Source of the DNA: Vicugna vicugna
Lineage: Eukaryota
Assembly: GCA_013265495.1 (NCBI GenBank)
Contig: MU058000.1
Location: 1,612,001-1,676,000, forward strand
Length of the DNA: 64,000 nt
Direction of reading: 5' to 3'
Below the pieces are notes generated by a model. The model worked only from the letters and a program-made list of their open reading frames with translations. It was not told the origin of the DNA and made no database searches. The translations under genes and the position numbers were made by a program. This document shows, piece by piece, positions 5,348 to 55,429 of this stretch; positions within the stretch are counted from its first letter, which is position 1; each line of letters starts with the position of its first letter.

Positions 5348-5972
5348 GGTGGTCGGAGGACAGTGAAATGCTGCCACAACCGCGCCCACACAGGGCTTGG
5401 GGGTCAGAGCCCAGTGATGGTGGCTGGGTCCACTGCTCCTGCTCCCACCACACGCTGAAGGGCTCATTTCTGAGTGTATCCTTGAGGAGAGAACATTCAT
5501 TCCCTGGCAGCAGTTCCAAGTGACTACATCCTCAAGCCTTTCAAGACTGATCCTGCAGAGGAAGAGCTTCAGAGGATGAGGTTTTCCCCATACAGAGGCA
5601 CGGGCTTGCCAGGGCCCAAGCTGGTGCCGGGAGCATTGGGTCTGGATTTATACCAGCGTCTGGTACATTGAAGACTGAGGGACATTACCTTTCCTGTCTC
5701 CACAATAATCCTTTCCTTCCTGAGATAGAAGAGCTCCTATTTTTCAAGTCCATAAACCCAAATATCTTGCAATACTGTCACTCTGTTTCTGAACATCTTC
5801 TCTTCACTGCTGTCAGGGATTCCAAAATGGCACTCTGTCCCTGTCAACCCTATACAGGTAATAAGCTAGTCCCCCTAGAGTGAAAGAAGATGAAACACCA
5901 AAATCAAACACACAAAATATTAAACATTAATTTACTCTTGGGTATGGAATTATTTTCTTGTAAAAAAAAATT

Positions 5973-6268
5973 NNNNNNNNNNNNNNNNNNNNNNNNNNNN
6001 NNNNNNNNNNNNNNNNNNNNNNNNNNNNNNNNNNNNNNNNNNNNNNNNNNNNNNNNNNNNNNNNNNNNNNNNNNNNNNNNNNNNNNNNNNNNNNNNNNNN
6101 NNNNNNNNNNNNNNNNNNNNNNNNNNNNNNNNNNNNNNNNNNNNNNNNNNNNNNNNNNNNNNNNNNNNNNNNNNNNNNNNNNNNNNNNNNNNNNNNNNNN
6201 NNNNNNNNNNNNNNNNNNNNNNNNNNNNNNNNNNNNNNNNNNNNNNNNNNNNNNNNNNNNNNNNNNNN
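5973..6268. other. Assembly gap (N run)
   Basis: Run of n characters. Confidence 1.
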
Positions 6269-7369
6269 ATGAAATTTTTTCCTTGTAAAAAAAAATTGAG
6301 CTCAAAGGACTCAGTCTTTTCCTCCATCTTATTCTGGTGTACTTGAAGATCTGGCTACCACTTCCTCGTGACTGTATCCAGAAAATAATCATTTAGAGCT
6401 TGCCTTTGTTATACAGCTCAGTCAGACAGTTAATCCAGTCTATCATAAAGTCCTGATCCTAGCAATTTTTCCCTTTATCTTCATAGTCGGTACTTAGTGG
6501 AGAAAGGAAACAGCTGGCTAGCATCTTATATGACAGTGCCCCAGGCATTGACTTACTTTTGGCGAGAGGGTTGTTTGAATCATTGGCTGTGGGAGAGGAT
6601 TTAGGGATGGGTACTATAAAAAATGACGCCAGATCTCAATCAAAAAAAAAAAAATTCCTGGGAAATTTGTGATCAGTTCCCTGCTGGCAAAATGATTATA
6701 ATCTTTTGAGAATGAGAATCAAATGCAAAGGTATCATGACCACATTCTCAAAGTGAGCTCCATCTGGACATAAGCAATTCCTTTGAGAAAAACAAGTATG
6801 ATAAACTCCTTTGAGAGAACCTTCCCCAATATGGCAATTGCATTCAGGCTAAAATAAAACATGATATCAAAATATTTTGATTTTCAAATCATGATAACTT
6901 CTTACTGTAATGCAAAGAACAGAAGATGATAGTTTAGTTTTTCTTTTGATATGACTATGATGTCATTACTATTCTTGGCTATAATCCAACAGACTGTTTT
7001 TTGAAATCGTTGTTGGGTATGGGAAAGTGTCATTGTTTCAAAGCTCCTTAACACAAGATCTTTATAACAGAATCTCTTAAATTATCTACATTTTCTTCTT
7101 TGTTACTGTATTAGTGTTCAAAGAAAATTAATGTTCAAAAGATAACCCCAGAGTTTATGAGATCTTTTAGTATCAAAGAAAGATTAAATTACCCTCATTG
7201 AACAGTATCTGGAAAAGAAGAAAGAGGAGATTAGCAAAGTTTTAAGAAATTTATAAAAAAAGGTGGAAGTTAAAACAAAGTGAGGCAGTGGGATCATCAA
7301 AGGTTGCTAAAATTATTAGGCAAAATATTAGAAAATAGGGTGGTCACAGAGTATCAAAATATTATCCTA

Positions 7370-7721: not shown

Positions 7722-9490
7722 TATTGGAGGCTGAAAAATGGCACACCAAAATCTCCAGAAATTAATATTAAGAAGTCTTAATCTGCAGATCCTTATCTGA
7801 AAAAAGGTACTTTGCAGCCATGTTAAGAATTTTAAAAAATTTTTTATTACATATATATATTTTATTGAAGTATAGTCAGTTTACAATGTTGTGTCAATTT
7901 CTGGTATACAGCATAATGCTTCAGTCATACATGAACATACATATATTCATTTTCATATTCTTTTCACCATAAGTTAATATAAGATACTGAATATAGTTCC
8001 CTGTGCTATACAGTATGAACTTGTTGTTTATCTATTTTATATATATTAGTTACTATCTGCTATCTCAAACTCCCAATTTATCCCTTCTCACCCCTTTCCC
8101 CCCAGTAAGCATAAGTTTGTTTTCTATGTCTGTGAGTCTGTTTCTGTTTTGTAAATAACTTTGTGGGTTTTTTTTTTATATTCCACATATAAGTGATATT
8201 GTATGGTATTTTTTTTTCTCCTTCTGGCTTACTTCACTTAGAATGACAATCTTCAGATCCATCCACATTGCTGCAAATGGCCTTATTTATTCTTTTTTAT
8301 GGCTGAGTAGTATTCCATTGTATAAAATAAATTTTGATGGATATGTAGGTGGTTTCCACGTCTTGTCTATTGTAAATAGTGCTGCTATGAACATTGGGGT
8401 GTATGTATCTTTTCAAATTAGAGTTCCCTTCAGATACATGCCCAGGAGTGGGATTGCTGGATCATATGAAGTCTACTTTTAGTCTTTTGAGGAATCTCCA
8501 TACTGTTTTCCATATTGGCTGCACCAAGCTACATTCCCACCAACAGTGTAGGAGGGTCCCCTTTTCTCCACACCCTTTTTAGCATTTATCATTTGTAAAC
8601 TTTTAATGATGGCCATTCTGATTAGTGTGAGGTGATATCTCATTGTAGTTTTGATTTGCATTTCTCTCATAATTAGCAATATTGAGCATTTTGTCATGTG
8701 CCTATTACCCATTTGTATGTCTTCACTGGAGAATTGCTTTTTGGGTCTTCTGCCCACTTTTGGATTGGGTTGTTTGGTTTTTTTTTAATTATTAAGTTGT
8801 ATGAGCTGTTTATATATTCTGGATATTAAGCCCTTGTCAGTCTCATCTTTTACAAATATTTTCTCCCACTCTTTAGGTTGTATTTTGTTTTGCTTATGGT
8901 TTCCTTTGTTGTGCAAAAGCTTATAAGTTTAATTAGGTCCCATTTATTTATTTTTGCTTTTATTTCTATTGCCTGGGTAGACTACCCTAGGAGAACATTG
9001 CTGAGATTTATGTCAGATAATATTTTGCCTATGTTTTCTTCTAAGTGATTTATGGTGTCTTGTCTTAATGTTTAAGTCTTTAAGCCATTTTGAGTTTATT
9101 TTTGTGTATGATGTAAGGATCTTGAGATGGGGAGATAATCTTGGTTTACCTGAGTCGGCTGTAAATGTGTCACAAGTGCCTTGTAAGAGGGATGCAGAGG
9201 GAGATTTTGCTGCAGTAGAGAAAAAGTGATGTGTCAAGAAGAGCAGAACTCAGAGGGATGTGGCCAGGAGCCAAGGAATGCTGGTAGTCTCTAGAAGTGA
9301 ATGATGCAGTGGATGGATTATCACATGGACTCTTAAGAAACCAGTCCTGACAAACACTTTGGCTTTAATCCTTAAGACTCATTTTGTATTTCTGAACTCC
9401 AGAACAGTTAAGAGAATAAATCTGTGTTTTTTTTCTTTAAGCCACTAAGTTTGTGGTGATTTGTTACAGTGGCAACTGGAAATACAGAAG
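7722..9490 (+). mobile_element. MLT1C/D-like MaLR LTR split by a young L1 (parts 7722-7832 and 9113-9490)
   Basis: 'tttgcagccatgttaag' rejoins 'taaggatcttgagatggggagataatc'; 3' end 'agaataaatctgtgtt...taagccactaagtttgtggtgatttgttacagtggca'. Confidence 0.8.
7833..9112 (-). mobile_element. Young 5'-truncated L1 (camelid-like 3' UTR plus ORF2 C-terminal relic)
   Basis: ORF 8479-8757 encodes EDIQMGNRHMTKCSILLIMREMQIKTTMRYHLT (L1 ORF2 C-terminus); minus-strand 3' end ...ctgactatacttcAATAAAa followed by a TA/A-rich tail. Confidence 0.95.
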
Positions 9491-53400: not shown

Positions 53401-53908
53401 AATTTTTCTCTAGCAAGAGGGATTGTTACTTAGGTGGGAGTCAGAAAGGAGAGTAGTTCATGTAGTTGAGATTCAATTATAAATGGTTTTGGATGCCATC
53501 ATCATGGATCTAACTCTCACCAGAAGAAAATGTAGGAAGTATCTCAGGTTTTATGCAGAGTGACAGGATCTACTCTGCGTTTTGAACAATAACCCTGGCA
53601 ATAAACCTTTCTAGGCTGAGAATTAGAGCATAAATTTGGGCAGAGGGTCAAAAAAGTACATTTCATCTCTGGAGTGAAATAGACTCCTATTATTCCTCCA
53701 CTCACCCCAAATACTCATTAACACATTCCTTTTCAAATTGTGTGTTTTGAAATCTATTCATGTCTTACGGACAGATTCCAAATTCTAAATATTTGCCAAA
53801 CCACCCAACCTACCCAATATGAGTATCACTTGTTTATTTGATATTTTTTATTGATTTTAAAAAACTTCAATCAAGAATTAAGTTGTTTGCAACCTAATTA
53901 AGTTGACG

Positions 53909-54434
53909 GCAACCTGGACGTTCGTTGACAGATGACAGGATGAGGAAGTTGTGGTATGTTTATCCAAAGGATACTACTCAGCTACGGAGGAGAATGGGAT
54001 GATGATGTTCGGGGCAACATGGATGAACCTGGAGATTGTCACTCTGGGTGGAGTGAGCAGGAGGGAGGGAGAGGAGTGCCATGTGATGTCACTTGTGTGT
54101 GGAATCTAGAAAACAGACGAGTGAACTTCTTTGCAGGGCGGGGGCAGACTCCCAGACATAGAGGACGGGGCTTGTGGTTGCTGGTGGGGAGGGTTGGGAA
54201 GGGGGGAAGTGGGAAGGAATGGATTGGGAGTTGGGGATTTGCAGATGCTAACTAATACCTGTAAAGTTGATGGTTGGCGAGTTCATGCTGCGAAGCACAG
54301 GCAGCTGTGTTCGGTATCTTAGGGTAACCTATGGTGAAGAGGAGTATGGGAACCAATATATGTATATTCACGTGGACTGGAGCATTGTGCTGTGCACCGG
54401 AGATTGAGTTGTGAACTGACTATACTTCAATAAA

Positions 54435-54435
<1 letters not shown>
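53909..54435 (+). mobile_element. 5'-truncated L1 3' end, same family as 7833-9112, A-to-G hypermutated
   Basis: Colinear with the reverse complement of 7861-8325, ending identically in aactgactatacttcaataaaa; differences are dominated by A>G. Confidence 0.95.

Positions 54436-54472
<37 letters not shown>
54436..54472 (+). repeat. (CA)n microsatellite at the L1 tail
   Basis: Seen directly; follows the L1 AATAAA. Confidence 0.95.
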
Positions 54473-54475
<3 letters not shown>

Positions 54476-55429
54476 GAAAACGAATAGGTTCTTGTGTTTG
54501 TTTTACAAACCCATTTTACCTTGAGGATGGCAAGGAGAAAGTTAAAGTCCTATGGCTCTCTGGCAAATGGTTTTATTCCTCTTCTTCTAATTTCTGCGTT
54601 TTGCATTAAAAAATAAACAGAAGGAGAGGCAGGAAGAGGAAGAACGAAGAGATCAATGGCTCAAGATTTTGAAAGACTATCTTGAACCTGTGAAATCTGA
54701 CAAAGTGTGTTGAAGTAGAAAAACTGAGATACATTATTTTTTATGCCATTTTATTTTGTGGTATGTCTAAACGTCCTGGAAGTTTTTTGTTGTTGTTGTT
54801 ATATATAAGTTCGGCAAGATTTTTCCTTTTTTCAGTTTCTCTTTCTTTTTAGAAAGAATGTACAATATTTTTACTTCAGTGTCCTCCCCCACATTCACCT
54901 CTAGTTAGCTTATTATTCAGATTTAGGCTGTGATTTGTTTCCAACTAGTCTGCCGCAGAATTTTTTAGAATAGTTTTGAATAAGAACGTCATCAATAAGA
55001 ACAAATAAACATACACGTTACAGGCACTGTTCCAGGAACTTCTGGTGCAGTTTATTTCACCGTTCAATATATCAGTATTACTAGATTATAAAGATACCAT
55101 ATAGTAGACAGGTTATGGTACAAAATACGGATTATTTACTGCCACAATTACTGTGTGTTTTTATTAAAGTAAGTTTCTTTTGGAAATGTTGGGAAATTCT
55201 TAAGATATAAAGCCATTATGAATAATTTATTCCTTCCTCTCTGTCAACACCTTTTGCATAAATCATTGCTGTCTTCGTTTGATGTGTTCATATATCTTAC
55301 AAAGTAAAATTTTATTTCACTTACCAATATCACAGACATTTTCTCATATTATTTAAAAAAAAACCCTTAAAAGCATGCTTTTTATGGATACAAATTATTC
55401 TTTAATAATGGATGCTCTTGTTTGAAAAG

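Follow-up and report, generated by a model that had tools for sequence, protein, structure and literature searches.

A 5'-truncated L1 3' end at positions 53905..54440 (+) of the window, the whole stretch of 64,000 nucleotides analysed here, was found to be hypermutated from A to G by alignment to 58 genomic copies of its family. The changes are specific to one strand, private to this copy and limited to the element. They follow an ADAR-like rule for the 5' neighbour, they are present in independent DNA and they are old. At least one further case was found. ADAR-type editing of the RNA template, followed by insertion, is very probably the explanation of this copy. The sequence-only reading, made from the letters of the window, had proposed that an A-to-I hyperedited L1 transcript was retrotransposed and fixed in the germline, and this proposal is supported by the substitution spectrum, the private sites, the boundaries, the neighbour context and the recurrence.

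Anatomy of the element and its substitution spectrum

An L1 3' end is present where the sequence-only reading had placed it. Its start, which had been given as 53909, lies slightly upstream at about 53905, and in the multiple alignment the homology runs from there to the common 3' end of the family with its AATAAA. The first 68 codons are a remnant of the ORF2 C-terminus, recognised by translation at about 53906-54109 (+) with its stop at 54107-54109, and the remainder of the element, 54110-54440 (+), is the L1 3' UTR. The translation of the remnant reads YYSATEENGMMMFGATWMNLEIVTLGGVSRREGEECHVMSLVCGI up to the stop; it is colinear with the family frame and has the same stop. A stop-free frame of 145 aa in a family copy matched residues 1145-1268 of human LINE-1 ORF2p with E = 9e-45, and Pfam gave no match for the C-terminal ORF2 piece. 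For the gene context, Pfam gave no matches in the five longest open frames of the window, which are five of its six frames of at least 110 aa (5950-6327 (-) was left out). The L1 family is high-copy and dispersed, with 6008 and 8831 first-look candidates in two genome searches, and its copies have a common 3' end. An ordinary, unedited sister copy lies in the window at 7861..8396 (-), where it belongs to a longer L1 extending upstream. This sister copy had served the sequence-only reading as its reference. It is 92.6% identical to the family majority, from which it differs by 4 A>G and 11 G>A changes.

Both ends of the focal element show some further details. At the 3' end, an (AC)17.5 microsatellite occupies 54439..54473 (+) in place of the expected A-rich tail. 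The repeat is probably a habit of the family and not a product of editing, because an ordinary, unedited family copy (L011) likewise ends in TA/CA repeats. At the 5' end, two tandem 20-bp units, 85% alike, lie across the junction at 53876..53915 (+). They read AATTAAGTTG...GCAACCT; the first ends in CAACCTAA, which is unedited family sequence, and the second ends in CAACCTGG. The units may have arisen when the junction was duplicated after insertion, or they may be an artefact of joining. A local alignment of the flanks revealed no target-site duplication above shuffled sequence (378 of 500 shuffles scored as well).

The substitution spectrum was determined in an alignment of 59 rows, the focal copy and 58 controls including the sister, with the per-column majority taken as the ancestral state. 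For the reference loci, the focal copy and the sister each served as query for 29, and L046 was dropped as a duplicate of L011. Over 522 aligned sites, the focal copy has 89 A>G changes at 222 ancestral A's (about 40%), together with 10 G>A, 11 T>C, 6 C>T and 17 transversions. The means of the 58 controls, a non-random set selected for their resemblance to either the focal copy or the sister, are 7.3 for A>G (sd 3.2, maximum 15), 7.9 for G>A, 7.1 for T>C, 4.0 for C>T and 12.8 for transversions. The z value of the focal A>G count against these controls is 25.7. The fraction of changed A's exceeds that of T>C among T's (Fisher p = 9e-12) and that of G>A among G's (p = 1e-8). The family state is therefore A, and the focal copy is the outlier against the 58 genomic copies. 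The hand count of the sequence-only reading against the sister, roughly 70 A>G, 4 G>A and 10 T>C, is close to what the pairwise alignment gives. Between 53880-54470 and the reverse complement of 7820-8400, there are 77 A>G, 4 G>A, 13 T>C, 5 C>T and 26 transversions beside 345 matches. The two example stretches that it quoted are also present in the sequence as given. Its dismissal of APOBEC3 and of gBGC can be retained as well. The sense-strand cluster of G>A changes that APOBEC3 would leave is absent (10 of 100 ancestral G's, near the control mean). As for gBGC, the change is one-stranded, T>C being far from as common as A>G, and the flanks are of ordinary composition.

The excess has sharp boundaries. 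The edited zone extends from the first changed site at 53908 to the last at 54413 (+), with an approximately even density in 40-nt bins between them. It is followed by an unedited terminal segment at 54414..54440 (+), with AATAAA at 54429-54434, in which all 13 ancestral A's are retained. The probability of this retention at the overall rate is 9e-4, and many of the 13 A's sit in favourable contexts. The untouched 3' end described by the sequence-only reading is thus borne out. The G content is 37% within the element and 17-19% in the 500-nt flank on each side, so that the skew does not reach the flanks, and the rise and fall of the GC-skew profile coincide with the element ends. The A content is 25% in the focal element against 43% in the sister.

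The neighbour context was also informative. By 5' neighbour, the edited fraction is 29/52 (.56) after T, 39/86 (.45) after A, 13/34 (.38) after C and 8/42 (.19) after G, and the chi-square p value is 0.003. This order is ADAR-like. The sequence-only reading had noted several edits 3' of G as a point against ADAR. The caveat does not hold statistically, because A's after G were changed least, as expected of ADAR. According to the portion of Porath 2014 (PMC4365171) that treats their context, hyper-editing sites are depleted of G upstream and enriched for G downstream. The downstream enrichment is absent from the focal copy, in which the fractions by 3' neighbour are.52 for A,.38 for G,.35 for C and.32 for T (p = 0.07). 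It is also absent from the second copy described below, where the fraction before G is.30 and not above average (p = 0.19).

A second hypermutated copy and weaker candidates

A 21-nt stretch of the focal copy containing 8 changes was used as the first probe against the whole genome with up to 3 mismatches. It gave 57 matches, compared with 9 for the reversed control. Twenty of the 57 were fetched, having been chosen by eye as the most L1-like, and 37 were left unfetched. Four of the 20 fetched loci belong to this L1 family. One of them is a strong second copy, and the other three (L067-L069) show only local or modest A>G change and are biased by the manner of their discovery.

The second copy is a hypermutated L1 3' end of 776 nt at about 2010386-2011162 (-) of G000:C5059 (loci L061 and L081). 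Upstream of it the alignment is non-homologous, and the copy is therefore 5'-truncated at about 776 nt. Against 15 reference copies, it has 121 A>G changes at 311 A's, with 12 G>A, 16 T>C and 18 C>T. The fractions by 5' neighbour are.52 after T,.50 after A,.29 after C and.19 after G (p = 8e-5). Its last change lies 26 nt from the end, beyond which 10 A's are retained, so that its 3' boundary is the same as that of the focal copy. No target-site duplication above shuffled sequence was detected for the second copy (225 of 500 shuffles scored as well), and a clean poly(A) tail is absent from both copies. In the minus-strand reading, the second copy ends in AATTTAAAAAAT, followed by seven G's before the flank (L081 880-886). 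This run of G's is either a piece of edited poly(A) or flank sequence.

The focal and second copies are about 69% identical. At 197 comparable A sites, G is found in both copies at 48, in the focal copy only at 36 and in the second copy only at 31, and A is found in both at 82. The two copies are separate editing outcomes and not copies of one another, because 67 of the 115 changed sites are discordant and they share only 3 differences other than A>G. The 48 shared sites exceed the 33.7 expected (p = 3.5e-5). This excess probably reflects site preference.

Other probes were less specific. A probe from the second copy failed as a detector, giving 992 matches, since its motif already exists in a natural L1 subfamily. 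A degenerate probe near the 3' end failed likewise with 908 matches, again from a natural subfamily. None of 20 loci fetched from these 908 was heavily hypermutated; their A>G fractions are 0.08-0.30, and the highest belong to short fragments containing the probe itself. The two sets show that subfamilies with G at sites where A>G is read are represented by 992 + 908 pattern matches genome-wide, and natural L1 subfamilies carry G at 2-3 of 4 sites within one stretch. Any search for hypermutated copies must take the subfamily of each copy as its standard of comparison.

A fourth, degenerate probe gave 5 matches, of which 3 were new (L102-L104). Outside the probe windows, A>G changes in the three loci number 48/262, 41/239 and 32/274, and T>C changes 18/156, 11/142 and 7/164 (p = 0.07, 0.009 and 0.009, respectively). 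The 15 controls have a mean of 10.5 A>G changes and a maximum of 18. Few of the changes in L102-L104 follow G. The three loci are regarded only as weaker candidates, having been found by their G's. In L104 (G000:C12268:1488100-1489600, -), only 1 A>G was seen among 91 A's in the upstream 240 columns, compared with about 20% in the 3' 460 columns. Its A>G excess thus has a boundary inside the element.

Origin of the changes

For the focal copy, editing of the RNA template would have proceeded in three steps. The RNA, either an L1 transcript or some other transcript with an L1 3' end at its terminus, would have been held in a long, near-perfect duplex with antisense L1. An ADAR-type adenosine deaminase would then have turned about 40% of the adenosines into inosine. 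Finally, reverse transcription of the edited RNA, in which inosine would have been read as G, would have given a 5'-truncated copy inserted in the germline. We infer an ADAR as the enzyme, antisense L1 RNA as the duplex partner and L1 target-primed reverse transcription as the route of insertion. The unedited L1 3' end folds no better than shuffled sequence (z = +1.05), and editing along 500-780 nt would therefore need an antisense partner. This partner could have been antisense L1 RNA transcribed separately, or the edited transcript could itself have contained an inverted L1 copy. The 3' boundary shared by the two copies might reflect a partner without the last ~26 nt, or an AU-rich end that was unstably paired or protected. 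Deamination of the DNA strand in an RNA:DNA hybrid would yield T>C on the sense strand, which is not seen.

The G's could instead have arisen without RNA editing, by error-prone L1 reverse transcription in which dC was repeatedly placed opposite template A, for example from a skewed dNTP pool. Such errors would also produce A>G on the sense strand confined to the element. The first 26-27 nt to be copied are clean in both copies, which can be read as a change in the state of the polymerase after initiation, and neither an antisense partner for ADAR nor a source locus or an inverted L1 pair came to light. However, about 40% of a single template base is changed while the other classes stay near background. 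An error rate of this size at one template base far exceeds the known biases of polymerases. Moreover, the 5' order, with T and A similar and above C and G, is the rule of ADAR, and misincorporation by template dislocation would be expected to favour a 5' G rather than avoid it. Reverse-transcriptase error is therefore considered quite unlikely.

A second alternative places the changes in the DNA after insertion, by a strand-asymmetric A>G process such as damage linked to transcription or the action of an adenine deaminase on single-stranded DNA. The evidence from independent DNA bears on it. At least half of the sampled words of 53700-54700 are present in 18 public runs from 8 studies with 5 organism labels. 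Contigs from 4 runs (4 studies, 4 organism labels) span 53700-54426 with 0-4 differences, and their depth over the element equals that of the unique flanks, as for a single-copy sequence; these are Logan contigs of older runs rather than raw reads, and the best-matching run may be the assembly's own sample. The sequence-only reading had asked for confirmation in raw reads; these contigs are independent DNA carrying the G's, and each of the four organism labels represented in them has the focal copy. Two of the four runs account for all the differences: one flank position, 53757, shows T>C, the CpG positions 53920 and 53924 both show G>A, and 54195 shows T>G. Among the 89 changed sites, 88 are identical across the four runs. 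Like 53920, the exception at 53924 reads A in runs X8 and X10, whose lineage has either lost the change by reversion or never acquired it.

The age of the G's can be read from the CpGs that they made. In the focal copy, 3 of 10 C's that became CpG by an adjacent A>G are now T, compared with 2 of 52 other C's. In the second copy, the corresponding counts are 11 of 15 and 7 of 99, and in the controls a C before A reads T in 130 of 2085 cases. The decay of these CpGs indicates that the G's have been methylated germline DNA for a long time, and some of the original changes may have reverted in this way. Against a DNA-level process stand the identity of 88 sites in four organism labels and the CpG decay, which shows that the G's are old. 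The excess ends at the 5' end of the element and 27 nt inside its 3' end, next to ordinary flanks, and the same inner 3' boundary recurs at the unrelated locus of the second copy. The change is one-stranded, and specificity for TpA is absent, since 29 of the 89 changed A's follow T and 39 follow A. Thus, a DNA-level origin is very unlikely.

Thirdly, the element might belong to a naturally G-rich L1 subfamily or have been gene-converted from one. Natural subfamilies do have G at some of these sites, as the two sets of pattern matches indicate. At 8 of the 89 changed sites G is present in at least 6 of the 58 other copies, and the overlap with the second copy is above chance. In contrast, G is found in 0-1 of the 58 copies at 45 of the 89 sites. 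A few of the 89 sites may thus reflect subfamily differences, and about 80 are private as judged from the alignment. The closest other genomic copy is 72% identical to the focal copy, among the best 40 scored of 6008 candidates. The second copy is no closer relative and is discordant at most of the changed sites, as given above, and the 20 loci retrieved by a G-bearing pattern reach A>G fractions of at most 0.30, as against 0.42. No shared G-rich subfamily, which the sequence-only reading had named as a source of refutation, has thus come to light, and this origin is highly improbable. An assembly or base-calling artefact can be given almost no credence: apart from the general possibility, it is favoured only in that the best-matching run may be the assembly's own sample, whereas contigs from the four runs reproduce the sequence at single-copy depth and the decay at edit-made CpGs is a biological signature.

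With editing of the RNA template as the preferred explanation, a wider proposal may be put forward tentatively, although we lean slightly against it. Hyper-edited L1 RNA may have been a recurrent source of heritable insertions in this lineage. L1 3' ends would regularly enter long sense-antisense duplexes, in germ cells or early embryos, would be deaminated by ADAR as far as a constant limit some 26 nt short of the polyadenylation site, and would be inserted nonetheless. If this is true, ADAR would be mutagenic to L1, much as APOBEC3 is to cDNA. Each fossil would then record the extent of an ancestral RNA duplex and would seed new G-rich, CpG-rich sequence.

Relation to known deaminase fossils

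ADAR1-type A-to-G hypermutation was reportedly described in avian retroviruses by Hajjar and Linial in 1995. Clusters of A-to-G changes in integrated BLV proviral DNA, detected by PCIP-seq, have been ascribed to ADAR1; as described in the relevant portion of that report, they span about 70 bp with at least 7 changes (PMC8025556). A-to-G hypermutation of HTLV-2/STLV-3 is attributed there to Ko et al. 2012. As in these retroviral cases, insofar as that source describes them, adenosines of an RNA that was later reverse-transcribed are seen here as clustered, one-stranded A>G changes in integrated DNA. The retroviral cases presented there are exogenous and somatic, whereas the element here is a non-LTR L1, changed over 500-780 nt at about 40% of its A's, inherited and found under several organism labels.

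Fixed copies hypermutated by a deaminase are known from APOBEC3, whose G-to-A fossils have been described in L1, Alu and LTR elements (Knisbacher and Levanon, PMC4866542; Zaranek et al., PMC2873906). The copies described here resemble those fossils, as the cited passages portray them, in that a fixed hypermutated copy records a host deaminase and is recognised by one-directional mismatch clusters against family members. They differ from the fossils of those passages in direction, G>A there arising from minus-strand cDNA and A>G here from RNA, and in motif. In the parts of both screens that deal with mismatch classes, A>G served only as a filter or a background class (PMC4866542, PMC2873906).

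Hyper-editing in transcriptomes is a parallel at the RNA level. The relevant part of PMC4365171 likewise describes dense A-to-G change in repeats, a need for long dsRNA and a deficit of G one base upstream. The clusters considered there are RNA-versus-DNA mismatches with enrichment of G downstream, whereas the changes here are in DNA and lack that enrichment. For L1 itself, Orecchini et al. 2017, in the part concerned with their reporter, detected no edited site over more than 2.5 kb of L1 RNA, and their conclusion was that the restriction of L1 by ADAR1 does not depend on editing (PMC5224506). That work, in the same part, links ADAR1 to L1 RNA and the L1 ribonucleoprotein, while the copies here imply the existence of edited L1 RNA that remains competent for insertion. 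In the passage concerned, a 2016 review says of the part played by ADAR editing in the mutation of retroelements that it "has not yet been determined" (PMC4982230). A full-text literature search, whose coverage did not extend to Carmi et al. 2011 or to a 2015 review by Knisbacher and Levanon, brought up no description of an ADAR-type L1 copy fixed in the germline.

The two copies therefore constitute evidence, at the level of sequence, that L1 RNA can be hyper-edited along at least 500-780 nt, that reverse transcription and insertion are not completely closed to inosine-rich RNA, and that more than one such event took place in a germline. There is a risk of taking dense A>G copies for old or divergent subfamilies. 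Per-copy substitution tables over mammalian L1 3' ends could give the frequency of such events, their ages and the boundaries of the duplexes. The decay of edit-made CpGs offers a possible internal clock for dating such insertions.
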